DNA of 64,000 bases from Candidatus Bathyarchaeota archaeon (GCA_963714275.1 CAVQNT010000002.1:736001-800000), one strand, 5' to 3'. Counted from the first letter of the stretch, positions 13,828-61,781 are shown. The notes: generated from the letters alone by a model not told the origin. Numbers and translations are program-made.

Positions 13828-14097
13828 TCAGCTAAGGAGGTTGTTGAGCTTTTCGTATTCCTCTAAAAATTTCATTCCTTTTTCTGTTGTTAAGTAGAAT
13901 GTTTTTCCATCGTTTTTAGAGTTAGACAAAAGGTTGCGGGAAATTACGTATTCAAGGTATTTTTGTAGCTCACTAAAGCTAAGGTTGCATTTATAGAGTA
14001 TACTAGTCTTTTTAGCAGGCTTTCGAGAGATTGTGAGTATCTCTCGGATGATTTCGAGGCGTCCTCTTTTTACGAAAGATTGCTCCATTTCTATCAT
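13828..14097 (-). CDS. ArnR1-like winged-HTH regulator (COG3432 type), paralog A
   Basis: KRGRLEIIREIL...KKTSILYKCNLSF...YL...LL...YLTTEKG signature. Confidence 0.9.
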   Translation of the reverse strand: MIEMEQSFVKRGRLEIIREILTISRKPAKKTSILYKCNLSFSELQKYLEYVISRNLLSNSKNDGKTFYLTTEKGMKFLEEYEKLNNLLS

Positions 14098-14430
14098 GAC
14101 CTTTCTATGTCTTTCTTCTCGACGATTATGCTAGAAGATTTGTTCTATTCTTTATAAGGCGTGTTAAGTACCAATTAATAATCTAGTTTTGATAGTCTTG
14201 TCGATAACGTAGTTTAGAAGTTTTATTAGTAATTGTTGTTATGAATCTTTTTTACTTTTATTCACAACTGATTTTGAATCCTTTGATGAATGGATGATGA
14301 TATTAATAGAAAATATTAATTAAGATATGATCTTAATTGAAGTTCTTTAACAAGCCATGGATTTTTCTGAAAGAGGACATCCTAAACCATTTATATCCAA
14401 TATTTGTATGGTATTCAGGTTGGTCTGCCT

Positions 14431-14625
14431 ATGATCGATGATGTTATTAGGCTTCTTGAGGATGGAACTTGGCATAGTTTTTTTGAAATAAAGGAAAAGT
14501 CGAATCTTACAGAGAATCATTTTGGGAAAGTTGTACAATTCTTGAAAGAGTTTGATTTAGCAGATATTGATGATGATCAAAAAAGAGCAAAGATTAGCCC
14601 TTTCTTCTTGGAACTTCAAGTATGA
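14431..14625 (+). CDS. small wHTH-like protein
   Basis: MIDDVIRLLEDGTWHSFFEIKEKSNL...FLKEFDLADID pattern of a minimal winged helix. Confidence 0.65.
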   Translation: MIDDVIRLLEDGTWHSFFEIKEKSNLTENHFGKVVQFLKEFDLADIDDDQKRAKISPFFLELQV

Positions 14626-14739
14626 ATTCGTTGTATAATCTCAAAAAGTATGGGAACAGAACACATATCTATAAACAGTATTTTTGAAAAATGTTGACGC
14701 TTCCTAATACTTTTATTGATTTGTTACAACCCAGATAAC

Positions 14740-15216
14740 ATGAGCTTTCAAGATAGAAGTTTAACAGCTAGAAAGCTTTTAGAGATTATGGGTGTAGCCA
14801 TAGCAGTTACTCTTCTTTTGAACAATACAAACTCGATCTATGGTTTATTATCAACAACATCTACTATTGGAACAACAGGTGTTGTTTCTTCAGCTAGTCT
14901 AGGAATTTACTCTAATAGTCAATGCACTACCGCTCTTTCTTCAATTGACTGGGGGAGCCTTAGTCCTGGAGGAAACAAAAACGTCACCATCTATGTGAAA
15001 AATACCGGAAGCGTGGCTTTGACTTTGACCCTTTCAACAAGCAACTGGACACCAACAAATGCTCCTACATACTTAACCTTAACATGGAATTACGCTGGCG
15101 CTACAATCAATTCAAACGCGGTGGCAACGATCATTTTAACCTTAAGGGCCTCGTCTGGTATTTCGGGTATAAGCAGCTATCAGTTCCAAATAACCATTAC
15201 GGGAACACAGGTTTAG
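14740..15216 (+). CDS. secreted all-beta protein, TasA/CalY-like fibre subunit candidate
   Basis: Signal peptide ending IYG, N-terminal strand LLSTTSTIGTTGVV, IDWGSLSPGGNKNVTIYVKNTGSVAL core, C-terminal FQITITGTQ strand, no membrane anchor. Confidence 0.7.
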   Translation: MSFQDRSLTARKLLEIMGVAIAVTLLLNNTNSIYGLLSTTSTIGTTGVVSSASLGIYSNSQCTTALSSIDWGSLSPGGNKNVTIYVKNTGSVALTLTLSTSNWTPTNAPTYLTLTWNYAGATINSNAVATIILTLRASSGISGISSYQFQITITGTQV

Positions 15217-15218
15217 AC

Positions 15219-15228
15219 CTCTTTTTTT
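15219..15228 (+). terminator. oligo-T archaeal terminator candidate
   Basis: CTCTTTTTTT just after the TAG stop of 14740-15216. Confidence 0.45.
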
Positions 15229-15346
15229 ATTTAAAAGTTTTATTGAAAAGTTTTTAGGATATATGAGTTTTATGTTATAGAAGATTCATACCCAGGGTCT
15301 ATAAAGAAAATTCTCAAATCATATAAATTATTACTGCCAATAAAAG

Positions 15347-15577
15347 ATGAAGAAAATGTTGGATGACGTCTTTATAAAAATACTTTCAGAAACTAAAGCA
15401 AGCAAGTGGATGAGCATGCCAAAGTTACGCGGGATTCTTCATGATTATCTTCAGGAAAAAGCTAAAGCTGAGCTAGTTATGGATTTTTTGGAAAAGTACT
15501 TTATTGATGTTAACAACGATAAAAGTCTAGTCAGGCTAAATGATTTGGCTAATAAATTGTTTGAAAAACCTTTATAA
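15347..15577 (+). CDS. small wHTH-like protein
   Basis: 76 aa with a pattern similar to 14431-14625 (DD..IL...W.S......DFLEKYFIDVN). Confidence 0.55.
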   Translation: MKKMLDDVFIKILSETKASKWMSMPKLRGILHDYLQEKAKAELVMDFLEKYFIDVNNDKSLVRLNDLANKLFEKPL

Positions 15578-15581
15578 TAGT

Positions 15582-15869
15582 CTATAGACGCATATTTTCT
15601 AGAACTTCTTTTATTTTATCGTAATCTTTAAGGAAGGTTTTCCCCTTTTCAGTTGTTTCGTATATTTCTTTCCCGTTCTTTTCGTATTTTCTGAGAAGAC
15701 CTCCCTGCATTAAACATTCAGCATAAAAATTAAATTGCGAAAGGCTTAAGTTGCAACGATAAATAAGCCGCGTTTTTCTTGAGCTCGAATTTGAAAATTC
15801 GAGTATACAAGCTATGATGTCCACTCTGCTTCTTTGTGTAAACCTAGCTTTACTTTTCACATCCGACAA
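15582..15869 (-). CDS. ArnR1-like winged-HTH regulator, paralog C
   Basis: QRSRVDIIACIL...RKTRLIYRCNLSL...YETTEKGKTFL. Confidence 0.9.
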   Translation of the reverse strand: MSDVKSKARFTQRSRVDIIACILEFSNSSSRKTRLIYRCNLSLSQFNFYAECLMQGGLLRKYEKNGKEIYETTEKGKTFLKDYDKIKEVLENMRL

Positions 15870-16223
15870 AAGAAAAACCTACATAATTTGTCTGAATATA
15901 TCTCTATATATTATTTTTTTCTAATAACCTATACTCGTTAGTTCAAAAAATTAAGCAATGGTTCAATTATATTTCCATTAATTAAATAGTTGTAATTATC
16001 GTTATTATTTTAAAAATCATCCTTTTTTTTAACGTTTTTTTATATTATAAGGTTATACAACATAAATACAGAAAAGAGTTCTGAAAAACTATTTCACAAA
16101 ACATAATATTAGTTTCTATACAATGTCGTTCTGAAAACTAAAAGATTAAGTAAGACCATAAGGCATGATGTGACTTAGGTTTAAAGTATTCGTGTCTGCT
16201 TCCTTCAGGGAGGGACTTGATCA

Positions 16224-16643
16224 GTGGAAACATCAAACAAGGATAAAAAAGAGTTATTGGAAAATCTTCGGCAAGAATGGAAGACGATGTGGAGATCCAG
16301 AATAGACGATGAAGTTAGAGCAGAAGGCATTGCCGATAAAACCTATGAACGGCTTTTTATTGATCGAGGCCTCATTTTATTTGCTACTAGAAACTTTAAA
16401 CCGCCAGAGTTTCAGGAGATTCTACATAAATATTTAACATTTGAGGAAGCTGAAAGATTAAACCCTAATCCTGTGAAAGGCGGGATTAGGAAGTTTATCC
16501 GAGAATATATTATTTCTAATAATAAGCCCTGCAGGTCTCAGAGAGAAGAATGGGTTCATGAATTAGACGCGATGAAAGAGAAGCAACAGTTAAGCCATGG
16601 CGGGAGAGGTTGGTTACATTTTTCATTGCTTAAGGTTCGTTAA
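16224..16643 (+). CDS. hypothetical protein
   Basis: 139-aa ORF with GGGAGG SD and GTG start, protein-like composition, no recognised domain. Confidence 0.65.
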   Translation: METSNKDKKELLENLRQEWKTMWRSRIDDEVRAEGIADKTYERLFIDRGLILFATRNFKPPEFQEILHKYLTFEEAERLNPNPVKGGIRKFIREYIISNNKPCRSQREEWVHELDAMKEKQQLSHGGRGWLHFSLLKVR

Positions 16644-16954
16644 AAGTCAAGTCAGATCTTAGATTAATGAATATTAAGTTGTGTGTTTAGTTTTATTTAT
16701 TGACTAATTTATCCTAGTGAATATAGAGTCCATCCGATTAACCATAATATGCACAATGTTGGTAGAAAGAAAAGTATTATGATTTTCTTCATTAATGTCT
16801 CTTAATTTAGTGGTATGGAACTTTCATATAGAACTTTCTATTCAATGTTATATAAAAATATCTCATCATAATATGTTTTAGTGTCGAAAATACGGCTTCA
16901 GCATTATTTAGATGCATTTTTTATCGTTAACTGAACTTTAGAAGTGAATAAAGA

Positions 16955-17315
16955 TTGATTTTTTCAGAGAACTCCAACATAGGATACCGCAATAGACTGG
17001 AAATAGTAAGGGATATCCTATCAATATTAGAAGTTGCTGGAGCACGAGGTTCAAAAAAGACTCATATTATGTATGGGGCTAATTTAAGTCTATAAACTAT
17101 TGAAGAGGTATCTGGATGAAGTTTTGGACGCAGGTCTCATCTACAAATATAAATCGTTTTATGTTATTACGAAGAAGGGGAAATTGTTTCTTCAGACTTA
17201 TGGGGATTATGATAAGGAAAACAGAGAGATCGAGAAACACGCTGTTAGACTGAACAATGGGAAGACCGAGTTGACAAAAATGTTATTGTTATCATACAAA
17301 CAGGAGCAAAAATAG
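16955..17315 (+). CDS. ArnR1-like winged-HTH regulator with C-terminal coiled-coil, paralog B (frameshift near 17090)
   Basis: GYRNRLEIVRDIL...GSKKTHIMYGANLS / YKLLKRYLDEVLDAGLI...YVITKKG. Confidence 0.88.
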
Positions 17316-17358
17316 TTCCCGTTAAGTTTTTGCATGTTCTTCATGAAGGGTTTGCTCA

Positions 17359-17979
17359 TTGACAAGTTTTAAAGATAAGGGTTTCCTTATTATCTGTGTC
17401 CTCGTCGCAGTTTTGATACTCGTTGTTTACGTTTTTACCCTTTTCTGGCCTAGATATGAGGAGTATTTCTTCGAGTTAGGCTTACTTGGACGGAACCAGA
17501 AGGCTGAGGACTATTTTCTCGGTAATACTTCAACTGTTGGGGTGGGGTCGAATGTTACTTGGTTCATCTACCTTCACAATCATATGGGGTCTCCTCAGAA
17601 TGTTTCTGTCCGTGTTAAGGTTTTGAATGATTCTATGTTGGCTCCGGATGATCGTACTTATGAACCCAGTCCTTATCTGGTTTCTTTTGAGGTTCCTGTC
17701 TCCCTTGCCACTGATGAGACGGTGCTTGTACCTTTCTCCTGGAGCATCTCCGAGGCTAAGGTTCAGAATGGTACCATCGCTATCAAGCATTTGATTATTA
17801 ATGGCCAGTCTGTGGATGTTGAAGTCTCAGGTTTGAGTGAGACTCGTTTCCGGCTTGTATTTGAACTTTGGGTTTATAATGAGAACTCTGGGGAATACCA
17901 ATTCTTCTGGACTTCTAAAGGAGAGTTGCATTCGGCTTCTATTTACATGTGGTTCGATGTAGTCATGCCTACAGGCTGA
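17359..17979 (+). CDS. DUF1616 domain protein
   Basis: N-terminal TM followed by EEYFFELGLLGRNQKAEDY and RLVFELW, typical of DUF1616. Confidence 0.75.
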   Translation: MTSFKDKGFLIICVLVAVLILVVYVFTLFWPRYEEYFFELGLLGRNQKAEDYFLGNTSTVGVGSNVTWFIYLHNHMGSPQNVSVRVKVLNDSMLAPDDRTYEPSPYLVSFEVPVSLATDETVLVPFSWSISEAKVQNGTIAIKHLIINGQSVDVEVSGLSETRFRLVFELWVYNENSGEYQFFWTSKGELHSASIYMWFDVVMPTG

Positions 17980-18170
17980 TGATCCTACAATTTTTGAACC
18001 GATCTTTAACTTGTCTTTTCTTGGCACATTTCATGAAACGTCGATTAATTTTGATTGTTGTTCCAGCACCATGTCAAGAGTAAATATGGTTGCTGATAGG
18101 TGCTAATGAATAGCCAAAGATTTGGGTTACTATTCTGTGCCCTTGTCCATTCTGCTAGAGGATTTGAAGA

Positions 18171-18862
18171 TTGAAGAGAAAAATTAACTCTAACGTTGCT
18201 GTGATCATCCCCACTCTTAATGAAGAAAAGGGTGTTGGTTCAACCCTACGAAAGCTTATAGACGTTTTGGGCAGTCCAGTGCTTATCCTGATTGACGGAA
18301 ATAGTGTGGATGGGACTGTTAAGATAGTAAGGATTGTGGTGCAGAAGTTATATTCCAGAATGGTAGAGGCAAGGGTGCTGCTTTACGTCAAGCATTAAAT
18401 TATGAGGGGCTTGATGGTGATATAATCATAATTATAGATGCTGATGGATCTATGGATCCCAAAGAGGTGCCGATGTTCATTGAGGCTATGGAGTTGGGTG
18501 CAGATGTTGTTAAGGGTTCTCGATTTCTACCAAATGGCTATTCTGAGGATATGGACCTTATCCGTAAGGTTGGAAATAAAATTATGCTTTTACTTGTCAA
18601 TTTTATTTGGTCGACAAATTACACCGATTTGTGTTATGGCTTCATGGCTTTTAGGAGAGAATCTTTGAAGAAGTTGTCTTCGCGTCTGAATTCCACGAAT
18701 TTTGAGATTGAGGCCGAAATTTGTATCAAGGCGCAGAAGCTTGGGCTTAAGGTTGTGGAAGTTCCTAGCGTCGAGCTTAGAAGAGGCTATGGAAGATCAC
18801 ATTTAAATACTTTTAGAGACGGGTTCCTTATTTTATTAAGAGTTCTAAGAGAGGTTTTTTGA
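18171..18862 (+). CDS. GT2 glycosyltransferase, DPM-synthase-like (frameshift near 18330)
   Basis: IIPTLNEE, DGNSVDGT, GKGAAL, DADGS, KGSRF and FEIEAE motifs across two frames. Confidence 0.88.
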
Positions 18863-18928
18863 ACAGTAAAAATCTGAGATGGAATTCAATCATCACGAAC
18901 TCTCTAAGAAAGAGGTAGAGGACATAAA

Positions 18929-19978
18929 ATGACAAATGTGGGAATTATTGGTTTGGGTCATATGGGACTGCTACATTTGCGCAATACTAGGTTTGTAGAG
19001 GGCGTTCGTGTCGTTGCTGCTGCGGATAAATCTAAAAAGGGATTGTCCGAAGCTAAAGCTTATGGAGTCAGCAATTTATACGAGGATTATGAGGAGCTAC
19101 TTAAATGCAAGGATCTCGACGCCGTTATAATATCTCTGCCTAACTTCCTTCATGAGAAGAGTGTTGTTCTCGCTGCCGAGAGGGGGTTACATGTTTTTGT
19201 GGAAAAGCCACTGGCCCGTAAGGTTTTAGAATGTGAAAGCATCAAGCGGGCTGTTGAAAGAAACGACATCAAACTTGCTATAGGACACAACTACCGTTAT
19301 TTCGACCATGTTCGGAAACTGAGAAACGAATATAATAAAGGAACCCTTGGGGATGTTGAGATAGCGAATTTTGAACATTTCGTAAATGGGCCCTTCGCTC
19401 ATCCTCTGGACCCTGTCCCAGTGCATGATTGGTGGCTAGACGCTCAATTGGTCGGCGGAGGAGCTTTGCTTGATCAAGGTTATCATCTCATAGACCTCTT
19501 CAGATGGTTCTTTCCAGATCCAGAGGTTCTTTATGTGAATCTTGGTTATCGCTACAATTTAGGCATTGAAGATAGCGCAACTATAGTGCTGCGGTCTAGG
19601 CGTACTTTAACTAGGGGCATCATAAGTGTCGGTTGGTTCCAGAAGATGGTTTTCCCAGATTTTAACTTTAGGATAAATCTTCACGGAACTGTAAGGTTTC
19701 TGTCAACGGATCATTTTGCTCCCAAGAATCTTTACTTGCACGCAGCCAAAGAGTCCATGAAAAATGGCCTGCGTAAGGTTCTAGGAAAGAGAATAAATCC
19801 CCTATCGTATACCTATTACTACGCTTCCTACTTTAAGGAAATGGAAAACTTTTTCAGGAGTATCGACGGTGATCCTGACGGTGCTCTTCTAGCCACCGTA
19901 GACGATGGCCTTGAAACGATCAAAATCATTGAAAAATCGTATAATTTTGTGAATAACATAAGCAAAGAAGGCAAATAA
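18929..19978 (+). CDS. Gfo/Idh/MocA family oxidoreductase
   Basis: GIIGLGHMG, HVFVEKP and GGGALLDQGYHLID motifs. Confidence 0.93.
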   Translation: MTNVGIIGLGHMGLLHLRNTRFVEGVRVVAAADKSKKGLSEAKAYGVSNLYEDYEELLKCKDLDAVIISLPNFLHEKSVVLAAERGLHVFVEKPLARKVLECESIKRAVERNDIKLAIGHNYRYFDHVRKLRNEYNKGTLGDVEIANFEHFVNGPFAHPLDPVPVHDWWLDAQLVGGGALLDQGYHLIDLFRWFFPDPEVLYVNLGYRYNLGIEDSATIVLRSRRTLTRGIISVGWFQKMVFPDFNFRINLHGTVRFLSTDHFAPKNLYLHAAKESMKNGLRKVLGKRINPLSYTYYYASYFKEMENFFRSIDGDPDGALLATVDDGLETIKIIEKSYNFVNNISKEGK

Positions 19979-19982
19979 TGGT

Positions 19983-20930
19983 TTGATGCACGTATCCGAA
20001 ACAGGACCGACCGTAAGTGTTGTCCATACCCAAGATCAGACAGAGGATAGCATAAAGAGAGCCACTTTCGAGGCGATAGATAATAGTGGATTTGATGTTC
20101 CGGAGAAAGTTGACTCGGTGTTTTTGAAGGTTAATCTGCGTTACTATTGGGATGCTTCAACTGGCGAAACGACAGATCCTAGAGTTGTATCAGCGATAAT
20201 TGACTATCTTCGGGAACATGGTGGCCGTCATGTCGACATAACAATAGCCGAAGCCGATGCTTCAGCCATGAGGACCAAGTACGCCTTCAAGATGCTAGGA
20301 TATGAGAAGCTGGCTGAGGGAAAAAATGTTAGATTAGTTAATCTTTCCCAATGTGAAAGAGTCGAGAAGGAGGTTATTGTCAACAACAAAAAAATTGTTT
20401 TGCCTATTGCACAGCCGATGCTTGACGCCGATTTATTGATAAATGTTCCTAAACTAAGAACTCAACGCCTTGCGACTATATCATGCGGTTTAAAAAACTT
20501 GTTTGGAGCCATCGCGGAGCCGAGAAAGGTTACTTATCACCCTCACCTCGATGAGGTTATAGTTGGAGTAAACAAAATTCTTAGACCAGCTTTGACTGTA
20601 ATTGACGGTTTCATTGCGTTGGGTAAATGGCCCATAAAGATGGGGCTCGTTCTAGCGAGCGTTGACCAATTGGCAGCGGACTACATCGCCGCGAGGGTAA
20701 TGGGATACGATCCGCATCGGATAACCCACTTGGAGCTTGCTAGAAAAGAAGGCGTTGGAAAGTCAGCAGAAATCACAATTAACGGTGTGAAAGACCTAAC
20801 TAGGTTTTCTAAGATATTTCCAAGAGAGAACTATTTTCTTTTCAATCAACTGTGGAACTTAAAACTAACAGCTCTTAATGCGTATCTAAAGCTAACAAAT
20901 GATACGAGACCACCTGTCTTGGATAAGTGA
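19983..20930 (+). CDS. DUF362 domain protein
   Basis: LKVNL, TTDPRVV, INVPKLRT, SCGLKNLFG, VIDG and DQLAAD motifs. Confidence 0.85.
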   Translation: MMHVSETGPTVSVVHTQDQTEDSIKRATFEAIDNSGFDVPEKVDSVFLKVNLRYYWDASTGETTDPRVVSAIIDYLREHGGRHVDITIAEADASAMRTKYAFKMLGYEKLAEGKNVRLVNLSQCERVEKEVIVNNKKIVLPIAQPMLDADLLINVPKLRTQRLATISCGLKNLFGAIAEPRKVTYHPHLDEVIVGVNKILRPALTVIDGFIALGKWPIKMGLVLASVDQLAADYIAARVMGYDPHRITHLELARKEGVGKSAEITINGVKDLTRFSKIFPRENYFLFNQLWNLKLTALNAYLKLTNDTRPPVLDK

Positions 20931-20988
20931 TTACCCGTATTAAGAGACCTAATCTCGAACCAAGGGCAATCTAAGGAAAAAGGAAAAC

Positions 20989-22155
20989 TTGCTGGAAATA
21001 GGCCAAATACTGCAATTTTTTGTACTTCTTTCATTTGGAATTCCATTTTTCATCTTTGGGCTGTATGGCACTATTCTTCTTTACTATAATAGACGAAATA
21101 ACAAGCAAGATAGCGAGAGCGGATATAATAGAAACGTAGAACCTGAACCTATCGTTTCTGTTGTGATTCCAACTCATAACGAAGAGACAATCATTTCTAA
21201 AAAAATCGAGAATCTTTTGGCTTCAGACTATCCTATGGATAGACTTGAAGGGGTTTTTGTAGACGACTCAGATGATTCTACTGCCAGCATTATAGAAGAG
21301 TTCTCCAAAAAGTTTTCTAACGTACATCTGATTAAATTTCGTGAACGCATGGGTTATAGCCCCTGTATGATTGCTGGATGTAATTTGGCCAAAGGAGAGA
21401 TAATGGTTCTTAGTGATGCTGGGGCGTTTCTTGATCCTCAGGCGATCCCGAATCTTGTTAGGCACTTTCGAAATCCGGAAGTTGGCGCGGTAACTGGCAG
21501 GGATGTGATCTTGAATGTGGACGAAGAAACTGGAAGAGCAGAAGATATGTATCAGAAGATTTACAATTTCTTAAGAACCTCTGAAACCAAGATGGATTCA
21601 ACTTTCTACTTTAAAGGAGAAGCCTCTGCTGTAAGGAAGGATCTGATCTCGGATTTAGAGAAATGTAGTGCAACCTTCGATACGGCGGCAGCGTTATGGG
21701 TCAGACAGAAGGGATATAAAACAATATACGATCCACAAGTCAAATTCTATGAATATGCGCCAAACACAAACTCTGAAAGGATCAAACAGAAGACGACTAG
21801 AGGGGCGAACTTGATCAAGATCCTATTCCAGTTTAGAAACATGATTTTTAGAGCAAAATATGGTAAGTTTGGGCTCATAATATTGCCTATGAACCTCGCG
21901 ATGTTGGTAGTCACGCCAATTGCGATATTTGCAGGAATTGTTTTTCTGGCTGCTCTAAGCTTTTTTGATTTTGCTTTCGCCAGCATTGTTTGGAGCATCT
22001 TGGGTGTGCTTTTCCTATTCTCATTGTTATTCTCGAAGCGACTTGTATTCACTTTTCTGGAATTTAACCTTAGTTTGCTCAGAGCGTTATATGAGATAAT
22101 CTTCATAAAGAGAAGACATGACCTGATAGAGAAGATCGCTTCGACAAGAAGGTAG
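20989..22155 (+). CDS. membrane GT2 glycosyltransferase (IcaA/PgaC/cellulose-synthase-like architecture)
   Basis: N-terminal TM, VVIPTHNEE, VDDSDD, SDAG, and C-terminal TM helices. Confidence 0.88.
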   Translation: MLEIGQILQFFVLLSFGIPFFIFGLYGTILLYYNRRNNKQDSESGYNRNVEPEPIVSVVIPTHNEETIISKKIENLLASDYPMDRLEGVFVDDSDDSTASIIEEFSKKFSNVHLIKFRERMGYSPCMIAGCNLAKGEIMVLSDAGAFLDPQAIPNLVRHFRNPEVGAVTGRDVILNVDEETGRAEDMYQKIYNFLRTSETKMDSTFYFKGEASAVRKDLISDLEKCSATFDTAAALWVRQKGYKTIYDPQVKFYEYAPNTNSERIKQKTTRGANLIKILFQFRNMIFRAKYGKFGLIILPMNLAMLVVTPIAIFAGIVFLAALSFFDFAFASIVWSILGVLFLFSLLFSKRLVFTFLEFNLSLLRALYEIIFIKRRHDLIEKIASTRR

Positions 22156-48683: not shown

Positions 48684-48701
48684 GGAGATTCTATATCGAT
48701 A

Positions 48702-53786: not shown

Positions 53787-53826
53787 GATTCATAAATGCG
53801 ACTATCCGCAAATTTGGAGGCAACAC

Positions 53827-54710
53827 ATGAACGGAGCTTTTATGATTAGGAAGGTTGTCTTGCCTGTGGCGGGCTTTGGGACAAGGCTTCTTCCAATGAC
53901 GAAGGAGATGCCTAAGGAGATGCTACCCATCTTTCTAGACAGTGTGAATGGTGGACCTTGTTTGAAGCCGATTGTTCAAGCTATTTATGAGCAGCTTTAC
54001 GACACTGGATTCAGAGAGTTCGGCCTAATCGTCGGAAGGGGCAAAAGAGCCATAGAAGACCATTTCACGCCTGATGAAGAATTTGTTAAAGAACTTGAAA
54101 GAATGAACAAAGCTGACTCGCTGAAGAGCTTAGAAGATTCTACTGGCGAGTCAACAACTCCACTATCGTCTTCATAAATCAACCGGTACCAAAAGGCTTC
54201 GGAGACGCCGTCTTAAGAGCTAAATACTTCATAAATGAAACCTTCCTAGTACACGCAGGAGACACGATTATTTTAGATAAAGACTGCAATCATTTCCGCC
54301 GTTTGATAGCGAGCCACGAAAAGTATAAAGCTGATGCAATCATGCTGGTTAAAGAAGTTGAGAATCCCAAAATCTATGGGGTGATTGAAGGCAAAGAAAT
54401 CGAAAACGGAATATACAACGTAGAAAAAGCCGTCGAGAAACCCGAGAAACCTCCAACCAACCTTGCAATAATACCTGTCTACATCTTCAATCCGAAAATC
54501 TTCAAAGCCCTTGAAGATACAGCACAACCAGAAAAAGCAGGCGAAATGCAGATAACCGACGGAATTCAAGAGATGATTAACCAGGGCTTAAAAGTCTACG
54601 CTGTCAAATTACCACCTGACGGGATACTACTCGACATAGGAAACCCAGAAAGTTGTTGGCAATCGTTTAACATCTCCTACCAAAACCTAAAAAACAGAAA
54701 GCGTGGCTAA
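53827..54710 (+). CDS. galU: UTP-glucose-1-phosphate uridylyltransferase (frameshifted)
   Basis: KVVLPVAGFGTRLLPMTKEMPKEMLPI, KRAIEDHF, GFGDAV, VEKP and GEMQITD motifs. Confidence 0.85.
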
Positions 54711-54785
54711 AAACTAAAACAAAGCAACAAAGAAGAACGCATGCATTTCAAACTAACAAGTATTCCATTCATAAAAAGGTGACTG

Positions 54786-55919
54786 ATAATTAGAAAAATT
54801 ATTGTATCCGCTCCAGGAAGAATATGCCTTTTTGGTGAACACATGGATTGGTGCAGGCATAAAGTACTTGCTTCCGCCGTAGATATGAGGTCTTTCGTTG
54901 AAGCTGAGGTCACCAGCAGCAAGATTGCTGAAGTGTTCTCCTACAGCCCATTCACAGTATATGACAAGTTCGAGGTGAACAATGCAATTCTGAACTGGAA
55001 TTCAGATCTTAAATATGTTGGAGGGGTGCTAAGAGCCTTCCAGAAAAAAAAGGATCTGCCATATATCTTGGGAGGGATGAAGATGCGTTTCCTAAGAGCT
55101 GAGGAAGTTCAGGAACGGTTAAGACAAGAAGGCAAGAAAGAGGCTTTAAAGGATCTGCCAGTAAGTAAGGGCTTGTCATCATCAGCTGCGATTTGTGTAG
55201 TCATCTCAGCCGCGGTTGACTTGACCCACCGCTTTCCAGAAATCGAGCAACAGGACTCCACTACCATTCTAAAGTATACATTAAAACCAGAAACGTTAAC
55301 CCTCTATGCAGACATGGCTTATACAGGTGAAAGGAAGGAACTAGGCATTAATTGTGGCCAGATGGACCAGTATGCTTCAGCTTTTGGAGGAATCTTGCAT
55401 ATCGACTGCACCGAAGAACCTGCGAAAATTCACCGGTTAAAACCCAAAACAGATCTTCCGTTAGTGATAGGAGACACAATGCAACCAAAGGATACGCCGA
55501 AAGTACTAGGTTGGCTCGGTGAACGATTCAAAGCTAGAGAACCAAAATTCGTTGAAGGTATGGAAAACATAAACATAATTGTTGGAAAAGCCAAAGAAGA
55601 ATTTGAGAAACCATCACTGAACTGTAGTAGAATAGGTGAGTTGATGAACGAAAACCAGCATTACTTAAAAAATTTTCTCCAAGTTTCAGGAGACTGCCCA
55701 GTGTCACCGTCAAGACTCGACGAACTAATAGAAGCAGCTCTTAAGGCTGGTGCATTAGGAGCGAAGCTTTCAGGATCAGGAGGCGGCGGATGCATGATAG
55801 CCCTATGTGAACCCGGAGACGAAGTAAAGGTTGCACAAGCCATAAACAAAGAAGGCGGAGAAGCTTACATCACGAAAGTTGCCGACAAAGGAGTGAGAAT
55901 CGAGTCTATCGAAAATTAA
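54786..55919 (+). CDS. GHMP kinase, galactokinase-like (non-canonical start)
   Basis: SAPGRICLFGEH, PVSKGLSSSAA, CGQMDQ and GAKLSGSGGGGC motifs. Confidence 0.88.
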   Translation: MIRKIIVSAPGRICLFGEHMDWCRHKVLASAVDMRSFVEAEVTSSKIAEVFSYSPFTVYDKFEVNNAILNWNSDLKYVGGVLRAFQKKKDLPYILGGMKMRFLRAEEVQERLRQEGKKEALKDLPVSKGLSSSAAICVVISAAVDLTHRFPEIEQQDSTTILKYTLKPETLTLYADMAYTGERKELGINCGQMDQYASAFGGILHIDCTEEPAKIHRLKPKTDLPLVIGDTMQPKDTPKVLGWLGERFKAREPKFVEGMENINIIVGKAKEEFEKPSLNCSRIGELMNENQHYLKNFLQVSGDCPVSPSRLDELIEAALKAGALGAKLSGSGGGGCMIALCEPGDEVKVAQAINKEGGEAYITKVADKGVRIESIEN

Positions 55920-56010
55920 CAATAGAAAAGACGCCGTTTTTACCTTTCTGGACAATCTCTTTTTCAAGAAAATAAACGTTTTCCTGTCCTTTCATCTAGA
56001 GGCTTAAACC

Positions 56011-56655
56011 ATGAATGCGAATGGAGTATCCGTCGTAACAACAACCTGGAATGAACGAGAAAACATTAAACTTCTAATCCAGACCATACAGAACACACTC
56101 AAGAACATGCCACACGAGATCATAGTCGTCGACGACAGCTCAACAGACGGGACTGCGGAGATCGCCGAGAAACTTGCAGATAAAACAATCAGAAAGGCCA
56201 GAGAAGGACAAACGAAAAGCCTACTCCACGGGATGAAGCTAGCAAAATACCCAGTCATAGTTACGATCGACGCTGACTTCGAGAACCCTCCAGAACTCAT
56301 ACCCGAGCTTGTCGAAAAAGCTGAAAAATGCGATATTCTCGTTGCTTCCCGCACAAAGCTGCCCAGAATATCCGAGAAACTAGCGTCCGGAACCTTGGGC
56401 AAACTACTCGGTGTGAAGGATGTTTTCTCAAACTTCCGAGTATACAAGAGGGAAACAATCTCAAGCTTTAATTTAAAAGGCGGAGAAACCTTCGGCGGAG
56501 AACTCATAACAATCGCCAAAAAGAAAGGATTCAAGATAGGCGAAACACTCTATGAATCAATCAGAAGGAAGAATCCCAGAATCGGAGGCACCCTCAAAGC
56601 CAACCTTAGAATTTTCTGGGCACTGGTCGAGTGCCTGGAAATCTACCTCATTTAA
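56011..56655 (+). CDS. GT2 glycosyltransferase (polyprenol-phosphate glycosyltransferase-like)
   Basis: TWNEREN, VVDDSSTDGT, DADFENPPELIP and ASR motifs. Confidence 0.88.
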   Translation: MNANGVSVVTTTWNERENIKLLIQTIQNTLKNMPHEIIVVDDSSTDGTAEIAEKLADKTIRKAREGQTKSLLHGMKLAKYPVIVTIDADFENPPELIPELVEKAEKCDILVASRTKLPRISEKLASGTLGKLLGVKDVFSNFRVYKRETISSFNLKGGETFGGELITIAKKKGFKIGETLYESIRRKNPRIGGTLKANLRIFWALVECLEIYLI

Positions 56656-56769
56656 AAAAAGACATTGGTACAGGAATAACGTGCCCCTCTACTTTTTTTA
56701 AATCATTGCCCCGTTGAGATTCAAAAATTAGCTAAGCTGACTATCATTTTTATTCAGCTATGAAACTGC

Positions 56770-58134
56770 TTGGAAGACCATTATATAATAGAGCAGTTAG
56801 TAATTAAAGGAGATCTATCATTGAACACAACCAGGATTCTTAGACTAATTCAATTTGCCCTCTTTCTGGCAGCTTTATGGTTCATCTATTGGGCGCACAT
56901 TTATGAAATGACTGTTTGGAACAGATCATTTCTAGAGTCTGTGCAAACTTCTATTTTTAATGTTTTGTTATACTTGGTTTCAATACTTGCCATAATATAT
57001 CTTGAAACACGTATGAGGCACATCAGCAAAATCAAGACACTTCATGAACCTATAGCAAAGACTTTGGGAGATCTACAGAGAGAGAATGAACTGATGAAAC
57101 GCGAACTACAAAAATCAAAACAGACAGCCCCTAGAAGGGTCGCAATCGGTTTTCTTGTAAGTGGAGTAATCACGCTTTCAGCCTCTATTGTGACTTCCTC
57201 AACTGTCTTGGCTTTCATAGGATTAGGGTTGACATTATGGGGCGCTTTATTCCTTTATACCAGAACCTCAAGTTCCGTGAAACCCATCTTACTCGATTCC
57301 TCAGTTATCTCCCCTCTTTTAACACTAAATAAGATAATAGCCGACCTAGGGTATGGAGGAAATAGCGTGTACCTCCCTTCAATGTACTTAAAGGAAGTTA
57401 AAGAAGAAACAGTCTTCATCCCATCAAAAAGAGAAAACCTCAGCGGAATATACCTAACCCCGCCTGGTCTAGGCTTAACAAACCTCTTCGAAGAAAAACT
57501 GGGAACAAAATTCGCAAAAGTCGACCTAAACTATCTACAGAGCAACCTGCCAAAACTATTAACTGAAGACCTTGAAATCGCAGACAACCTAGAGTTGAAT
57601 GTGGAAAATGACGTGGTCCACATCAAAATTGAGGGCTCTATTTATGCAGGCATCTGCAGCGGACTTAGAAATTCCACTACCAGCGCATGCCGCTTATTCG
57701 GCTGCCCCTTATGCAGCTCGATAACCTTAGCAATTACGAGATCCATTGGAAAACCTGTCATAATCGAAAACATTGAAACATCAGAAGATGGCAAAACAGT
57801 CAAAACCAACCTCAGACTTCTCGAAACAACTGTAACTAAGGAAGAAACCAAAACCGTAGAAGCTGTTGAGACACGTCCAAGAAATAATCTCCCATATATT
57901 GTGGGAATAATACTCTCAGTTTTTGGGTCAGCCATCCTGGCTTGGGTTGGTTGGCTAACCTGGCAGGACATGACAGTCTGGGGTAAGGACATCAACCTTA
58001 TACTCTTTGGCTCTAGAATAGGAGAAATCATAGATTTAGGAATAGGAATGAAACTAATTTACTACCTTCTAATAGGATTATTATTATTTATACTAGGATT
58101 AATCCTATTTTTCCAGAAGCGAAGAAAGACCTAA
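56770..58134 (+). CDS. multi-domain membrane protein (TM pair, coiled-coil, TM pair, Cys-motif soluble domain, TM pair)
   Basis: Hydrophobic segments; LTPPGLGL and C..FGCPLCS motifs. Confidence 0.75.
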   Translation: MEDHYIIEQLVIKGDLSLNTTRILRLIQFALFLAALWFIYWAHIYEMTVWNRSFLESVQTSIFNVLLYLVSILAIIYLETRMRHISKIKTLHEPIAKTLGDLQRENELMKRELQKSKQTAPRRVAIGFLVSGVITLSASIVTSSTVLAFIGLGLTLWGALFLYTRTSSSVKPILLDSSVISPLLTLNKIIADLGYGGNSVYLPSMYLKEVKEETVFIPSKRENLSGIYLTPPGLGLTNLFEEKLGTKFAKVDLNYLQSNLPKLLTEDLEIADNLELNVENDVVHIKIEGSIYAGICSGLRNSTTSACRLFGCPLCSSITLAITRSIGKPVIIENIETSEDGKTVKTNLRLLETTVTKEETKTVEAVETRPRNNLPYIVGIILSVFGSAILAWVGWLTWQDMTVWGKDINLILFGSRIGEIIDLGIGMKLIYYLLIGLLLFILGLILFFQKRRKT

Positions 58135-58490
58135 GTATTATCATATAACCTTTTAGGATAAAATATTGATTGATAAATAAACTGACAAATTGTAGAGAAC
58201 AACATCAACTACTCAATATCATATATATTATATTTTTTAGGTACATCCACTTTTTGAGAAGTTTAAATAGGCTAGAGCTAATTAAACCTTATAGCAAATA
58301 AGCAGAATTTGAGAAATTGAATCCATGATACTTGTCACCTTCATCTGTTATACATCCAATTCAAGTATTCACTTGTTGAAAGGAAGTTTTTTACTGTCAT
58401 CTGATTCGCTAGTAGCTAAACTACTGATACATAAGGCTTATATAAAAAAATAATAGCTCAGCTTGCGCACGCTAAATAGGGAGTCTCCGC

Positions 58491-60488
58491 ATGCATGTTT
58501 GGAAGTATTTTCTCTTTTTAGTTGCCTTCATTGTAGTATTATCTCATCAAGTGTTCGTGAATGCAGAAACAGATACTACGCCACCACAGTTAGAAATTGA
58601 CTGGCCTAGAAATTATTACAACGTACCAAGTTCAACAATAGTTATCAATGGAAGGGTGTATGATGAAAGTGGAATTCAGAAAGTAACTGTAAATGGTTCA
58701 GTTGTTGAAAAATACTGGAAAGAAGGGGTGCATTGCTTCTGGCAGAAGACTGTCAGCCTTGTTGAAGGATCAAACACGATAATTGTTATTGCATACGACA
58801 ATAGCCTAAATAATAATTCAATGGCAGAAGCCATTACTGTAGTTTACAAAGCAACGGATTATGAAGGGCCAACAGTTAGTATAGTTCCTACTACAAGTCA
58901 ACCAGCAAACAATGCCACCATTAAGTGTTTAGTGAATCCCAACGGATTATCCACTGAAGTTTACCTTACTGCAAGTTATTCCTCATGGGAGGATGCTCCC
59001 TTTAATTGGGGATATTTAGTTGGGTATTATTCTGGAACTGGGAACATCACTGTGAGTTTCACTTTCCCAGAAGAGGACCAACTAAGTGTAGGGGAGACAG
59101 TCTCGTATTTGTTTACTGTTCAAAATAACAAGGGTTCAACTCGATCTGAAATAGGTACATTTACAGTCTCTCAATCAATTTTTATACCTGACACAGAACC
59201 TCCATGGCTGATATTTTGGCCATGGAATTCTTGTAATGTGCCAAATTCGACTATCATAATTTGGGGGGAAGCTTATGATGCAAGCGGAATTCTCAATGTA
59301 ACCGTGAATGGAGAACTTGCCACTGGTTTGTTCTATGAAAACTGGTTCTATTGGCAAAAGGCCATCAATCTAACTGAAGGACCAAATACAATAACTGCAA
59401 AGGCGTATGATAATAGTTCTAATCGATTTGATGCTGAGAATACTATTACAATAAACTATCAGCCGTCTGGGTATCAAGGTCCTACAATCAGATTGCTACC
59501 TCCTGTGAATGTTACATCAACCTCAGGTACTATCTGCTGTGTTATTAATCCAAAGGGACTTCAAAGCGAGGTTTACTTATGTTACAGTGACTCTTCTTTT
59601 GAGAATGCGCCTTTTCTATATGGAATATCGCTTGGGCATCAATACTCAGGAGAAGATGATATCATAATTAACTATCATTTTGATAGTTTACCTTCGAGTG
59701 GGTCAATTTCTTACTGGTTTCAAACGTTCAATGATAAAGGTTATGCTTCTACAGAAGTTGCATTACTAAACCTAAAAGGTGTTGTACTCATTGATCCAAC
59801 AGACATAACTGCTGATTCTATGAAGCTGGTCTGGACAAAGAACAATGATGATGATTTTTATTCTTATGAAGTTTATCAATCAAATTCACCCGAAATACTT
59901 GGAACAAAAATATTCGACACAAACGATAGATTGGTAACATCCAAGAGCATTACAGGTTTGTCAGCTAACACTACATACTATTTCATTGTAAGAGTTGTGG
60001 ATGTAGGTGGGGCAGCAAGTGATTCTAACCAAATTAATGCTAGAACGAAAATTCCAATAACAATCTCGTGTTCTGTGTCATCTCATGATATTGACGATGG
60101 CCTTTCTATCTCTGTTTCAGGAGCCATTAACCCAGCTATTCCAGAAAAGAGTATCACATTAACCTACAGAAAACCTGACGGTTCAATATTGAATAGAACT
60201 GTTACTACAGGTTCAGATGGTAGCTACAGTGACTCCTATCAACCGAATGTAGTTGGCTCTTGGAGCGTAGAAGCTTCTTGGAAAGGTGATGATAGACGCG
60301 AAGGTGCATCCAGCTTGTCTCAATCATTTATTATTAAACCTGTCATAAAAAGCTTCATAGAGACTCCAATAGGAATAGCAACAATAATTGGCATAGTTGC
60401 TTTAATAATTATAACCCTGATTATTATTAAAAAGAACACCATTCAAATTCCAGCTAGCTTAGAACTAATCACACAAAAGTCTCTGTAG
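58491..60488 (+). CDS. cell-surface protein with Ig-like and FN3 domains and a C-terminal TM anchor
   Basis: Signal peptide, duplicated DT.PP...EG.NTI...AYDNS modules, FN3 (GLSANTTYYFIVRVVD), TYRKPDG...GSWSVEASW, and a TM followed by KK. Confidence 0.82.
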   Translation: MHVWKYFLFLVAFIVVLSHQVFVNAETDTTPPQLEIDWPRNYYNVPSSTIVINGRVYDESGIQKVTVNGSVVEKYWKEGVHCFWQKTVSLVEGSNTIIVIAYDNSLNNNSMAEAITVVYKATDYEGPTVSIVPTTSQPANNATIKCLVNPNGLSTEVYLTASYSSWEDAPFNWGYLVGYYSGTGNITVSFTFPEEDQLSVGETVSYLFTVQNNKGSTRSEIGTFTVSQSIFIPDTEPPWLIFWPWNSCNVPNSTIIIWGEAYDASGILNVTVNGELATGLFYENWFYWQKAINLTEGPNTITAKAYDNSSNRFDAENTITINYQPSGYQGPTIRLLPPVNVTSTSGTICCVINPKGLQSEVYLCYSDSSFENAPFLYGISLGHQYSGEDDIIINYHFDSLPSSGSISYWFQTFNDKGYASTEVALLNLKGVVLIDPTDITADSMKLVWTKNNDDDFYSYEVYQSNSPEILGTKIFDTNDRLVTSKSITGLSANTTYYFIVRVVDVGGAASDSNQINARTKIPITISCSVSSHDIDDGLSISVSGAINPAIPEKSITLTYRKPDGSILNRTVTTGSDGSYSDSYQPNVVGSWSVEASWKGDDRREGASSLSQSFIIKPVIKSFIETPIGIATIIGIVALIIITLIIIKKNTIQIPASLELITQKSL

Positions 60489-60775
60489 AATTGCATTCAA
60501 TTATCTCAGAATTCTTTGTCAGGTTGTATAACATTCAGCTTTGAATTTTTCAAAATTCCTTATTATTTCAAGATCTTTTCCTGTACAATGAGGCCAGCAT
60601 ATTTTGGGGTGTTCTTCCTTGAAATATGTCTACATAGCGGTCTGGTACTCCTTCAGTGCCATTTGCGTAGTATTTGTAATCTTTAACCATTTATGTAAAA
60701 AACAGTTTCTACGTCCGAACCACACTTTCATGATTCGTAAATACTTGTATCTCAACATTATGATTTGGAACCACA

Positions 60776-61204
60776 ATGAGTCCTCAATCAGAATTATTGA
60801 TGTTAGTCGGCATGAACGCCTTCATAGGACTCTTTCTTATATCTATATACAAGAAAACAAGCCTCAAAATCCAATTAACATATTTAATAGCTGAGGTTTT
60901 AGGATACCTTCTAGCCAAAGACGTAATATTCATTTATTTATCTCAAGATATTCAAATTTGGCTCTCGACAATTTATCTATCCCTTGCTTTTGTTAGCGTT
61001 CTGCATTTTTTCATGCCTAGCAAGGTTAATATCATGTTTAATAAGGTCAATTTTAAACAGCACATTAACCTCCCCACTCAAATGGAAACTAAACAAAAAA
61101 AAGTTAATCTTGACACACAATTGAATAAAAAACAAAACATACAGGACATAACTTTGGACTCCCTATTTGAAGACGCTCAAAGATTACTAGTAGAAGCCCA
61201 ATAA
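60776..61204 (+). CDS. hypothetical membrane protein
   Basis: Three hydrophobic segments and a polar C-terminal tail. Confidence 0.5.
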   Translation: MSPQSELLMLVGMNAFIGLFLISIYKKTSLKIQLTYLIAEVLGYLLAKDVIFIYLSQDIQIWLSTIYLSLAFVSVLHFFMPSKVNIMFNKVNFKQHINLPTQMETKQKKVNLDTQLNKKQNIQDITLDSLFEDAQRLLVEAQ

Positions 61205-61448
61205 CAACAAAAAAATCCATCTAAACAACATCTTCAATATTAAGTCTTTAGACCAAGTCCACCATTGAATGCAAAGTTTTACCAAAAAATTCAATGTTTA
61301 TTAACAAAGCTCAGCTAGCTCTTAATAAAAAAGCAAAAAATTGGGTAACATTTTTAGGCATATGAATCCTGCCCCAAAACCGCAATAGAACTTCTTGACT
61401 CAAACAAGCTTTGTTAGAAATCGCCTTAAAGGAAAGGTGCGATTCAAA

Positions 61449-61781
61449 ATGGAAATAGAGAACAACAAGGGATACCGCAGCAGACTGGATATCATTAAAG
61501 ACATCCTAAAGGTCACGGAGAACGCTGGAGCGTACGGAGCTAAAAAAACTCACATAATGTACGGAGCTAACCTGAGCTACAGACTCCTTACGAAGTACTT
61601 GCAAGAAATCCTGACCGCAGAGCTCATATACCAAGGCGAATCCTGCTACATCATCACACAGAAAGGAAAGGAATATCTAGGAAACTACGAAAAATACGAA
61701 GAAAACCGCACACAAACCGAAGACCGCATAAACAACCTAAATTATAACAGGAAAACACTTGAAAAAATGTTAACTCAGTAA
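61449..61781 (+). CDS. ArnR1-like winged-HTH regulator with C-terminal coiled-coil, paralog B'
   Basis: GYRSRLDIIKDIL...GAKKTHIMYGANLSYRLLTKYL...YIITQKG, closely resembling 16955-17315. Confidence 0.9.
   Translation: MEIENNKGYRSRLDIIKDILKVTENAGAYGAKKTHIMYGANLSYRLLTKYLQEILTAELIYQGESCYIITQKGKEYLGNYEKYEENRTQTEDRINNLNYNRKTLEKMLTQ

Follow-up and report, generated by a model that had tools for sequence, protein, structure and literature searches.

A 64,000-nucleotide stretch of a Candidatus Bathyarchaeota genome (C2:736001-800000; the window) carries, at 13,828-61,781, a dense set of glycosyltransferase (GT), sugar-nucleotide, membrane-protein and winged helix-turn-helix (wHTH) genes, and the question it raises is what these genes build. 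The original prediction, made from the window alone, read them as a biofilm-matrix system in which a fibre protein and an exopolysaccharide are produced under dedicated regulators. The genome amounts to 2.64 Mb in 10 contigs and is 91% complete and 3.7% contaminated. Pfam scans of 60 open reading frames (ORFs) of the window confirmed nearly the whole gene inventory of that prediction for 13.8-61.8 kb. Our own explanation is that the segment at ~13.8-63.4 kb is a flexible, low-GC genomic island, strain- or species-specific, whose genes make a complex cell-surface glycan by lipid-linked assembly, flipping by Wzx and transfer on the outside. Taken whole, with its pathway, we consider this explanation fairly likely to be right.

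The island status was established by comparison with six same-genus genomes (congeners). All six are syntenic with bases 1-13780 of the window at 70-86% identity, and the similarity stops at base 13780. Across 13828-63400 they share no sequence with the window except one gene-sized match (G002, 75%); within 44001-64000, their matches are this gene-sized piece and a 240-nt stretch at 63475-63730. Congener similarity resumes only at 63475, where conserved sequence sets in again on the right side of the island. The island has a GC content of 0.391, below that of the flank (0.429) and of the genome (0.434). Downstream of the orthologue of the left-flank URO-D-like gene (uroD), three congeners (L134, L138 and L139) have no GT genes and, save a distant wHTH and GFO match, no homologue of an island gene. 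Loose contig ends at 27085, 28795 and 35931 are common to several sequencing runs, which suggests that the gene content is mosaic among co-occurring strains. No direct repeats of at least 12 nt, tRNA, Rfam RNA or integrase were found at the island ends; the sole tRNA of the window is a tRNA-Ile at 7189-7264. A mobile element or virus was considered and rejected: one Atlas cluster is half viral by label, and the window scans found no integrase or phage gene. Flexible surface-glycosylation islands are known from O-antigen loci and from the envelope islands of Haloquadratum and marine bacteria. The present island resembles them in its low GC, its restriction to a strain or species between conserved flanks, its mosaic content and its wealth of GT genes, but differs in having a conserved, lineage-specific regulatory and structural head and in the lack of a detectable integrase, tRNA or flanking direct repeat.

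Coordinates count from the first base of the window, and island genes lie on the plus strand unless marked (-). The left arm of the glycan operon, 16224-25896, is a conserved core, and the rest is a variable arm. The operon opens with p139 (16224-16643), a conserved gene whose product has invariant W19, W23, D29, E34, G86, G87, K90 and F91 and a C-terminal GRGWLH motif (A3 alignment). p139 had no match among PDB sequences up to E 10, and its AlphaFold2 (AF2) model (mean predicted local distance difference test [pLDDT] score, 57.6) was not used. A wHTH gene and a DUF1616-like gene (17359-17979) follow; the latter encodes a sequon-rich protein with one transmembrane helix and a beta-rich outer domain. 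Its earlier assignment to DUF1616 holds in part, since the window protein scores 26.9 bits, below the cut-off of 31.6, but its syntenic homologue in locus L125, likewise preceded by p139 and a wHTH gene, scores 55 bits. The remainder of the core (18171-25896) comprises GT2a (split across frames), GFO/IDH/MocA, DUF362, a membrane GT2, an epimerase, GT4a (split) and GT2b.

The predicted number of ten GTs was borne out by Pfam, with six GT2 genes (18171-18862, 20989-22155, 24988-25896, 31335-31919, 32495-33433 and 56011-56655) and four GT4 genes (23393-24608, 29922-31025, 37462-38692 and 40539-41875). The variable arm continues at 29922-45375 with GT4b (split), GT2c, GT2d, a cytidylyltransferase-like nucleoside triphosphate (NTP) transferase, epimerase B (split), a C-methyltransferase (split), GT4c (split), a GH5-like gene, GT4d (split), PIG-L a (split) and two methyltransferases. 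The Wzx/MOP flippase (45416-46895; split) matches Polysacc_synt, Polysacc_synt_3 and MurJ and has 492 amino acids (aa) when base 45926 is omitted. NTP transferase b, PIG-L b and a split BshC-like gene (Pfam BshC, 16.6 bits against a cut-off of 27) follow at 47142-50458, and a PIG-L and BshC-like pair recurs in L131. A split PaaK/F390-synthetase-like gene, NTP transferase c (split), a GHMP kinase and GT2e occupy 52073-56655 (Pfam/NCBIfam); the PaaK-like enzyme was the sole meaningful match in an NCBIfam scan of ten unknown proteins. The sugar enzymes thus include three nucleotidyltransferases, two epimerase/dehydratases, GFO/IDH/MocA with DUF362, two PIG-L deacetylases and the GHMP kinase, and three island genes are C-methyltransferase-like.

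Three multi-pass membrane proteins of the island, DUF2206, mem277 and mem454, have no Wzy assignment. DUF2206 (27574-29789), split at ~28572, scores 196 bits over its C part (Pfam), which had no match among PDB sequences up to E 10. The protein also cross-matches DUF6541 in Pfam (E 9.3e-5) and is a candidate outside transferase or polymerase. A literature text search returned no occurrence of DUF2206, and, by title and abstract, none of the papers found on Bathyarchaeia, glycosyltransferases and biofilms together deals with such a locus. GT2e has DPMS (5MLZ, E 1.4e-19) as its best PDB match, followed by ArnC and GtrB. Two-step systems pair a polyprenyl-phosphate sugar synthase with a GT-C enzyme, whose membrane fold has an acidic motif in the first outer loop, as in DPMS/PMT, ArnC/ArnT, GtrB/GtrC and AglD/AglS. 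The likeness here is that GT2e resembles DPMS, ArnC and GtrB and that the large multi-pass DUF2206 protein is co-encoded with it and recurs in the same clusters; the differences are that no GtrA-like flippase was seen and that the pair lies within a much larger Wzx-type cluster. mem277 (50578-51411) has an internal repeat, and its C terminus matches a 67-72-aa membrane protein that adjoins seven mem454 homologues. mem454 (56770-58134) often stands beside Wzx in other loci; its link to DUF7982 is a lead from Atlas only (score, 0.89). The mem454 protein ends in a hydrophobic helix and a basic K-R-R-K-T tail, which resembles a C-terminal sorting signal.

Two glycan hydrolase-like genes had been predicted, and they were found with qualifications: the first has GH5 relatives and the second a weak GH5 match, but neither has a Pfam match of its own. 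GH5-like a (26096-27388, -) and GH5-like b (39050-40244, split; protein 39348-40244) both have a hydrophobic segment at the N terminus and a stalk rich in Thr, and both are predicted to be membrane tethered. PF00150/GH5 was found in 10 of the 13 non-self homologues of GH5-like a. This protein keeps the acid/base Glu as D-E-P in place of N-E-P (residues 226-230), lacks the nucleophile Glu and had no significant match among PDB sequences (best E 0.18). It may be a lectin-like pseudo-enzyme or may act by substrate-assisted catalysis on N-acetyl-hexosamine polymers. Its homologue P0134 has the same two changes at the catalytic residues, and P0129 also lacks the nucleophile. GH5-like b matches a GH5 mannanase weakly (E 0.01), with catalytic motifs that read A-E-P and G-E-T-G.

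The grouping recurs in other Bathyarchaeia. To the left of the operon lies a gene for a 158-aa protein with an immunoglobulin-like (Ig) domain (14740-15216), the fibre of the original prediction. Its family occurs in 25 of 61 relatives, a count that includes the own genome and none of six congeners; at class level, 47 of 201 genomes have it. The relatives counted are akin and not independent samples. Published relatives of the Ig protein came from 79 loci, all titled Bathyarchaeia, Bathyarchaeota or MCG-6, in keeping with the lineage that had been guessed. These loci were clustered without bias for families within 10 kb of the Ig-protein gene. The families found were GT2 (20/79 loci), a YdjM-like membrane hydrolase (19/79), Wzx (16/79), mem454 (16/79), an ABC ATPase (15/79), p139 (13/79), HTH_45 (13/79), epimerase (11/79), the N part of DUF1616 (8/79) and Exosortase_EpsH (6/79). 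At least two Ig-protein ORFs are present in 16 of the 79 loci, and the own genome has the gene in three places.

A closer set of 20 loci was fetched from 17 family- or order-level genomes. The cassette HTH1(-)/s73/Ig protein/s76/HTH2(-)/p139/wHTH/DUF1616-like/GTs is wholly or mostly present in eight of the 20 family-level loci (8/17 genomes). HTH1 homologues with 58-64% identity adjoin the Ig-protein gene in L015, L019, L020 and L023, and HTH2 homologues in the cassette have 63-78% identity; at 58-78%, the wHTH genes of the cassette are better conserved than the Ig-protein gene (42-53%). The operon head was examined separately in 20 p139 loci picked for having no Ig-protein gene nearby. Here p139 is followed, in constant order, by HTH5-like (13 loci), DUF1616-like (10), GFO (10), membrane GT2 (8) and PIG-L (8) genes. 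The L125 operon, for example, reads p139, wHTH, DUF1616, PIG-L, WbqC, DegT aminotransferase, GT2, GFO, a 301-aa protein, membrane GT2 and GT2, and core families follow p139 in the order of the window in L116, L118, L120 and L123-L126 as well. p139 occurs in 40 of the 201 class-level genomes, in 32 of them with E ≤ 1e-20. DUF2206 was found in 16 of the 201 as ORFs of 702-759 aa, in nine of these 16 on the strand of p139 and 12-31 kb downstream. The co-occurrence that the original prediction had asked of related genomes is therefore present for the cassette, the operon head and DUF2206. A second operon head lies at C7:216067-219624, near a contig end and partly frame-broken, with p139 (67%), two HTH_45 genes and a DUF1616-like gene (30%).

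From these genes we would infer the following steps, acceptors and control. Cytoplasmic enzymes would make and modify activated sugars, some of them unusual; these would be the nucleotidyltransferases, GHMP kinase, epimerase/dehydratases, GFO with DUF362, the C-methyltransferase-like proteins, PIG-L and the BshC-like and PaaK-like ligases. The four GT4 and six GT2 enzymes, among them the membrane GT2, which resembles the archaeal enzyme PcManGT, and GT2e as a DPMS-like polyprenyl-phosphate sugar synthase, would then build a chain on a dolichol-type lipid. Wzx would flip the lipid-linked glycan, as in Wzx/Wzy-dependent polysaccharide loci, which the island resembles in having this flippase. On the outside, DUF2206, the distant oligosaccharyltransferase AglB or both would transfer or extend the glycan. 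The acceptors would be envelope components, with the Ig protein, the DUF1616-like protein and a 665-aa surface protein as candidates. The last of these (58491-60488) has two Glucodextran_B-like Ig domains, fn3 and a C-terminal membrane anchor; it is the one gene that answers to the Ig/FN3 surface proteins that had been announced. Sequon frequencies per 100 aa are 2.4 in the DUF1616-like protein, 1.9 in the Ig protein, 1.75 in a metallophosphoesterase at the right end of the island and 1.65 in the 665-aa protein, against a window mean of 0.59, and they come from small counts (n = 11 for the 665-aa protein). Both GH5-like proteins, tethered to the membrane, may serve to bind the product or to trim it. 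Control of expression probably lies with the lineage-specific head, made up of Sso10a-type wHTH paralogues, the small proteins s73 and s76, and p139.

Several results weigh against this explanation. Neither AglB nor an initiating phosphoglycosyltransferase is encoded in the island. The only STT3 matches (C2:504249-505092), which mark aglB, are separated from the window by ~232 kb, and the single genome match to AglH (PF00953) is at C2:495823-496287, 8 kb from aglB and ~240 kb from the window. Because both lie outside the island, we infer the link to lipid carrier and acceptor. No Wzy/EpsG family or chain-length protein was recognised in the Pfam scans of the 60 window ORFs, so that a polymer and an oligosaccharide product cannot be told apart. 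GH5-like a lacks the nucleophile Glu, reading I-R-G-I-G where the consensus is I-G-E-I-G (residues 352-360), and the candidate GT-C assignment of DUF2206 comes from the DUF6541 cross-match. The genome holds ~20-25 HTH_45 genes, and not every copy need serve the island. By tblastn, which under-detects small wHTH genes when single queries are used, ~35 of the 79 Ig-protein loci have no neighbouring homologue of a window gene, and p139 lies within 3 kb of an Ig-protein gene in only seven of the 32 genomes with a strong p139 match; the cassette and the operon head are thus separable modules.

The alternative that survives best is the matrix model of the original prediction, in which the Ig protein forms a fibre or sheath and an exopolysaccharide, secreted or capsular, is trimmed by the GH5-like proteins under wHTH control, as with TasA and eps. 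We consider it unlikely, although several observations speak for it. In many Bathyarchaeia, the Ig-protein gene is physically close to genes for Wzx, GTs and membrane proteins; it is often present in several copies, and hydrolase-like genes lie within the GT cluster. The family is also large and diverse, as expected of an abundant, exposed structural protein: a word-indexed search gave 230 matches, and the representatives at 50% identity, most of them 143-160 aa long, number 3721 (E ≤ 1e-3), 2354 (E ≤ 1e-10) and 677 (E ≤ 1e-30). Exosortase_EpsH genes are present in 6/79 loci. Finally, Bathyarchaeum tardum, the only cultured member whose envelope has been described, encodes a protein of the Ig family (L059); according to its description (PMC10477458), the cells have an S-layer, and their chains lie within an outermost sheath that is unexplained. 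The description also reports that no pili or appendages were seen, which counts against a fibre.

The fold and family membership of the Ig protein also argue against this model. Relatives cover 95% of the longer ORF, which places the start at ATG 14740 and makes the protein 158 aa long. The protein has a short charged N terminus, a hydrophobic helix, a conserved linker (G35, L37 and G47) and then a beta domain in which Y85, N88, G90, W103, P105 and W116 are invariant. A class III signal peptide, as in archaeal type IV pilins, has a short charged N terminus and is cleaved at [KR][GAS], ahead of the hydrophobic helix; by eye, the A1 alignment of 41 sequences has a charged residue before the helix and no common G/A/S cleavage position. 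The window protein belongs to no Pfam family, and among 41 relatives DUF7507 was found in 17, a HYDIN/VesB Ig domain in 13 and Peptidase_M73 (PF12389), the TasA/camelysin family, in one (E 0.0028). The AF2 model has a pLDDT of 71.6, with values above 80 over residues 51-158. In VIA comparisons covering residues ~50-158, it matched HYDIN (Z 9.3), a GH123 N-domain (9.2), the PapD-like domain of CEP192 (9.1), MSP/VAP (8.5-8.6) and PapD-type chaperones (7-8); the background stated for the tool is 7-8, and Z values of 8-9 exceed it by no more than a modest margin. Pilus and fibre subunits scored lower (Tafi, 6.3; the Pyrobaculum bundling pilus ABP, 6.2; FimA, 6.2). Foldseek returned no PDB match at E ≤ 1e-3 and a weak one to the TasA fibre 8AUR (E 2.4e-3, TMq 0.45). 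A profile of the protein gave nothing significant among PDB sequences (best E 0.0082), and NCBIfam ArlG gave 16 bits against a cut-off of 110. The Ig protein is therefore modelled as a signal-anchored or secreted single Ig-like domain with a complete seven-strand sandwich of the ASH/PapD/MSP type, and the proposal of a TasA-like fibre is not sustained. A three-copy complex prediction with residues 28-158 scored 0.20 against a mark of 0.42, a result that weighs neither way on polymerisation.

The Ig-protein loci yielded two further observations. The YdjM-like gene (PF04307; e.g., L070:9111-9746) lies within 500 bp of the Ig-protein gene in 15 of its 19 loci and divergently upstream of it in 14; its product may be a dedicated processing or partner enzyme of the Ig protein. 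In the own genome, YdjM matches at C2:725426 and C4:139238 are not adjacent to an Ig-protein gene. A 686-aa Exosortase_EpsH protein of the archaeosortase type (e.g., L102:3811-5868) is encoded next to mem454, Wzx and Ig-protein genes in the six loci that have it, and no archaeosortase was found in the own genome (91% complete).

The surroundings of the Ig-protein gene likewise differ from those of tasA. The Bacillus subtilis tapA-sipW-tasA and eps genes, which are controlled by SinR/SlrR, resemble the island in combining a small secreted beta-sandwich protein, a polysaccharide cluster and small DNA-binding regulators. Here, however, there is no Peptidase_M73, SipW or TapA; beside the Ig-protein gene lie wHTH genes together with the small s73 and s76 genes, the regulators are of the Sso10a type, and the Ig sandwich is complete and ASH/PapD-like, unlike a donor-strand fibre subunit. 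Scans of the 60 window ORFs found no signal peptidase, TapA-like or pilus-assembly family and no assembly ATPase or usher. The regulators comprise HTH1 (13828-14097, -; HTH_45, 74.5 bits), which is divergent from the unit of s73 and the Ig-protein gene, HTH2 (15582-15869, -; 63.9 bits), HTH3 (16973-17315; 28.2 bits), HTH4 (51677-52006; HTH_45, 65% identical to HTH1) and HTH5 (61395-61781; 74.2 bits), which marks the right end of the predicted locus. The HTH_45 cut-off is 25.5 bits, and the four intact genes reach 63-74.5 bits. HTH3 has a 1-nt frame shift near 17090 and matches HTH_45 on its C half only; tblastn with HTH5 finds it as two adjacent pieces in different frames. The proteins have 89-128 aa, consisting of the wHTH and a short helical tail.

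ArnR and ArnR1, the archaellum regulators, join an HTH to a sensor and membrane segments. The window regulators had been called ArnR1-like, yet they have no hydrophobic segment, and their closest solved relatives are Sso10a proteins (1R7J, E 2.5e-7; 4HW0, E 9.2e-5). By their sequences, they class as Sso10a-type wHTH proteins. The notion of a dedicated regulator set has support in that some wHTH genes are syntenic with the cassette, but with the many HTH_45 copies elsewhere in the genome it need not hold for every copy. s73 (14404-14625) and s76 (15347-15577) encode small conserved proteins that are distant paralogues (A4 alignment). s73 has no Pfam match, and neither had a significant match among PDB sequences (best E 0.13); s73 would have a wHTH-like character. 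Two further s73 paralogues in the own genome each adjoin an HTH_45 gene. At C2:255573-256572 and C6:363124-364151, each forms a divergent pair with its HTH_45 neighbour, is 62-65% identical to s73 and is not accompanied by an Ig-protein gene. A search for operator-like repeats at 13800-17400 returned only AT-rich matches at chance level.

The membrane GT2 (20989-22155) had been described as processive. Processive membrane GT2 enzymes of synthase-dependent systems (Bcs, Pga, Has and Pel) carry a QxxRW motif, in whose place this protein reads Q-K-T-T-R-G. Its closest solved relative over residues 26-260 is PcManGT of Pyrobaculum calidifontis (6YV7, E 1.3e-24), an enzyme assigned to N-glycan synthesis, and the two are alike in having a GT-A domain followed by C-terminal membrane helices. 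PMC10569066 names 6YV7 as the Pyrobaculum mannosyltransferase, an enzyme with three membrane helices. The processive reading is thus not supported, and this result, together with the lack of a recognised Wzy or chain-length protein and the missing nucleophile of GH5-like a, counts against the matrix model.

A second alternative is that the island serves only AglB-dependent N-glycosylation. The lipid-linked oligosaccharide that it supplies would be specific to the strain and would be passed by the distant AglB to proteins of the S-layer and elsewhere on the surface; DUF2206 would attach the final sugar, taken from a dolichol-phosphate donor, in the manner of AglS of Haloferax. This scheme largely overlaps our explanation and differs only by excluding a polymer and other acceptors; in that restricted form, we think it quite improbable. 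It draws on the PcManGT-like GT2, the DPMS-like GT2 and the Wzx/AglR-like flippase of the island, on related operons with the diamino-sugar genes WbqC, DegT and GFO, on AglB and AglH elsewhere in the genome and on the sequon-rich outer proteins. Archaeal agl clusters are similar in that GT2 and GT4 enzymes assemble the glycan on a lipid and in that they encode a Wzx/AglR-like flippase, enzymes for sugar nucleotides, methyltransferases and a dolichol-phosphate sugar synthase. In Haloferax volcanii, there is an aglB-linked cluster and a separate agl5-agl15 low-salt cluster, so that a cluster can lie far from aglB. A DUF1616 protein of this species is also listed as an AglB-dependent glycoprotein (PMC8241124).

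The island is unlike agl clusters in that it has no oligosaccharyltransferase or initiating transferase and is missing from same-genus genomes. The original prediction had itself named a position beside aglB as the finding that would speak for N-glycosylation only, and aglB is not in the locus: the 232-240 kb that separate AglB and AglH from the island count against this alternative. Moreover, the island adds DUF2206, the two GH5-like and three C-methyltransferase-like proteins and the head of p139, Sso10a-like and DUF1616 genes. Ten GTs, three C-methyltransferase-like proteins and two GH5-like proteins exceed what archaeal N-glycans are known to require, and no agl cluster is known to include hydrolases.

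The frames of the island genes bear on whether it functions at all. At least 15 genes are split across adjacent frames, which had been overlooked before: GT2a, the third wHTH gene, GT4a, DUF2206, GT4b, epimerase B, the C-methyltransferase, GT4c, GH5-like b, GT4d, PIG-L a, Wzx, BshC-like, PaaK-like and nucleotidyltransferase c. ORFs of at least 250 aa cover a mean of 0.50 of the genome and 0.47-0.55 of the window bins, and aglB (C2:504249-505092) is likewise read in two overlapping frames in the assembly. Since the splitting is genome-wide, it is not a decay peculiar to the locus. Contigs from four wetland or freshwater-sediment runs hold 23-47% of the sampled words at 36.1-46.1 kb. Aligned to 27.0-47.0 kb, these contigs are without single bases at 35289 and 35409/35411, 41048 and 41052, 45926 and elsewhere. 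Contigs from three other runs, without the extra bases, give full-length ORFs; base 45926, in Wzx, is missing in the contigs of X1 and X3. With bases omitted as in the contigs, the ORF of epimerase B, 93 aa long as assembled, reaches 350 aa, that of GT4d has 444 aa in place of 175, and that of Wzx has 492 aa in place of 207. The independent contigs are 90-99% identical to the window, and intact genes are thus demonstrated for close relatives, not for this strain.

The extra bases of the window, at positions that include 35289, 35409/35411, 41048, 41052, 45926 and 46442, cluster at two motifs. Four of the nine listed positions fall within AGCT±1 (covering 1.8%) and two within GATC±1 (covering 3.0%), which suggests systematic long-read base-calling errors at methylated sites. 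The three breaks absent from independent short-read contigs are probably assembly indels, and the split genes are probably intact in nature. That the island is decaying and its split genes are true pseudogenes, as their number and the absence of the island from six congeners might suggest, is highly improbable given the genome-wide splits (aglB included), the full-length ORFs in contigs of three other runs and the six of nine indel positions at AGCT/GATC. The clustering also hints at AGCT and GATC methyltransferases in the organism. Such frame breaks are a reason to polish long-read metagenome-assembled genomes before pseudogenes are called.

The remaining genes lie at the right end of the island, in its flanks or in a second copy. 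The last island gene is probably that for a membrane-anchored metallophosphoesterase (62367-63395; Pfam Metallophos), a homologue of which, with 58% identity, is 2.5 kb from the Ig-protein gene in L024/L036. Beyond it, a small membrane-protein gene (63436-63706, -) is read in two frames here and is present in five of the six congeners at 73-83% identity and in the own genome at C7:109437 at 92%. Left of 13.8 kb are unrelated genes for a ROK kinase, a P-type ATPase, a HAD hydrolase, a proteasome subunit, PfkB and the URO-D-like protein, together with TrmB-like and ArsR-RDD regulators. The two regulator genes (7601-8853, -) are part of the flank that the congeners also have, 5-6 kb upstream of the island, and each of their families is within 10 kb of an Ig-protein gene in eight of the 79 public loci. 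A 521-aa ORF (9794-11359, -) has no Pfam family and is multi-copy, with DNA matches of 63-66% at ~10 places in the own genome (C3, C4, C5, C6 and C7) and many in congeners. The segment 53838-56738, which holds nucleotidyltransferase c, the GHMP kinase and the DPMS-like GT2, is duplicated at C2:986736-989634 with 94% nucleotide identity. This 2.9-kb duplicate sits in a second GT-rich region (C2:908-1005 kb), and fragments of it are found at C2:928-931 kb and 972 kb.

Few archaea are as abundant in sediments as the Bathyarchaeia, whose cell envelope is essentially uncharacterised. The locus supplies candidates for work on this envelope: the head of p139, Sso10a-type wHTH and DUF1616 genes, which marks clusters for surface glycans throughout an order; the Ig-like family, very large and unannotated, whose small secreted proteins are linked to Wzx-type clusters; and DUF2206 as a candidate outside transferase. 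As a flexible region specific to a strain or species, the island also bears on virus-host specificity. A bolder proposal, which we put forward as a long shot, is that a mobile, Bathyarchaeia-specific envelope module, made up of the head, the s73-Ig-s76 cassette and the glycan genes, builds the outermost sheath. The Ig protein would be its repeating unit, glycosylated and perhaps cross-linked by the island product, and island swapping would set surface identity and susceptibility to viruses. If this were true, the sheath module would represent a new kind of archaeal outer layer with regulators of its own.

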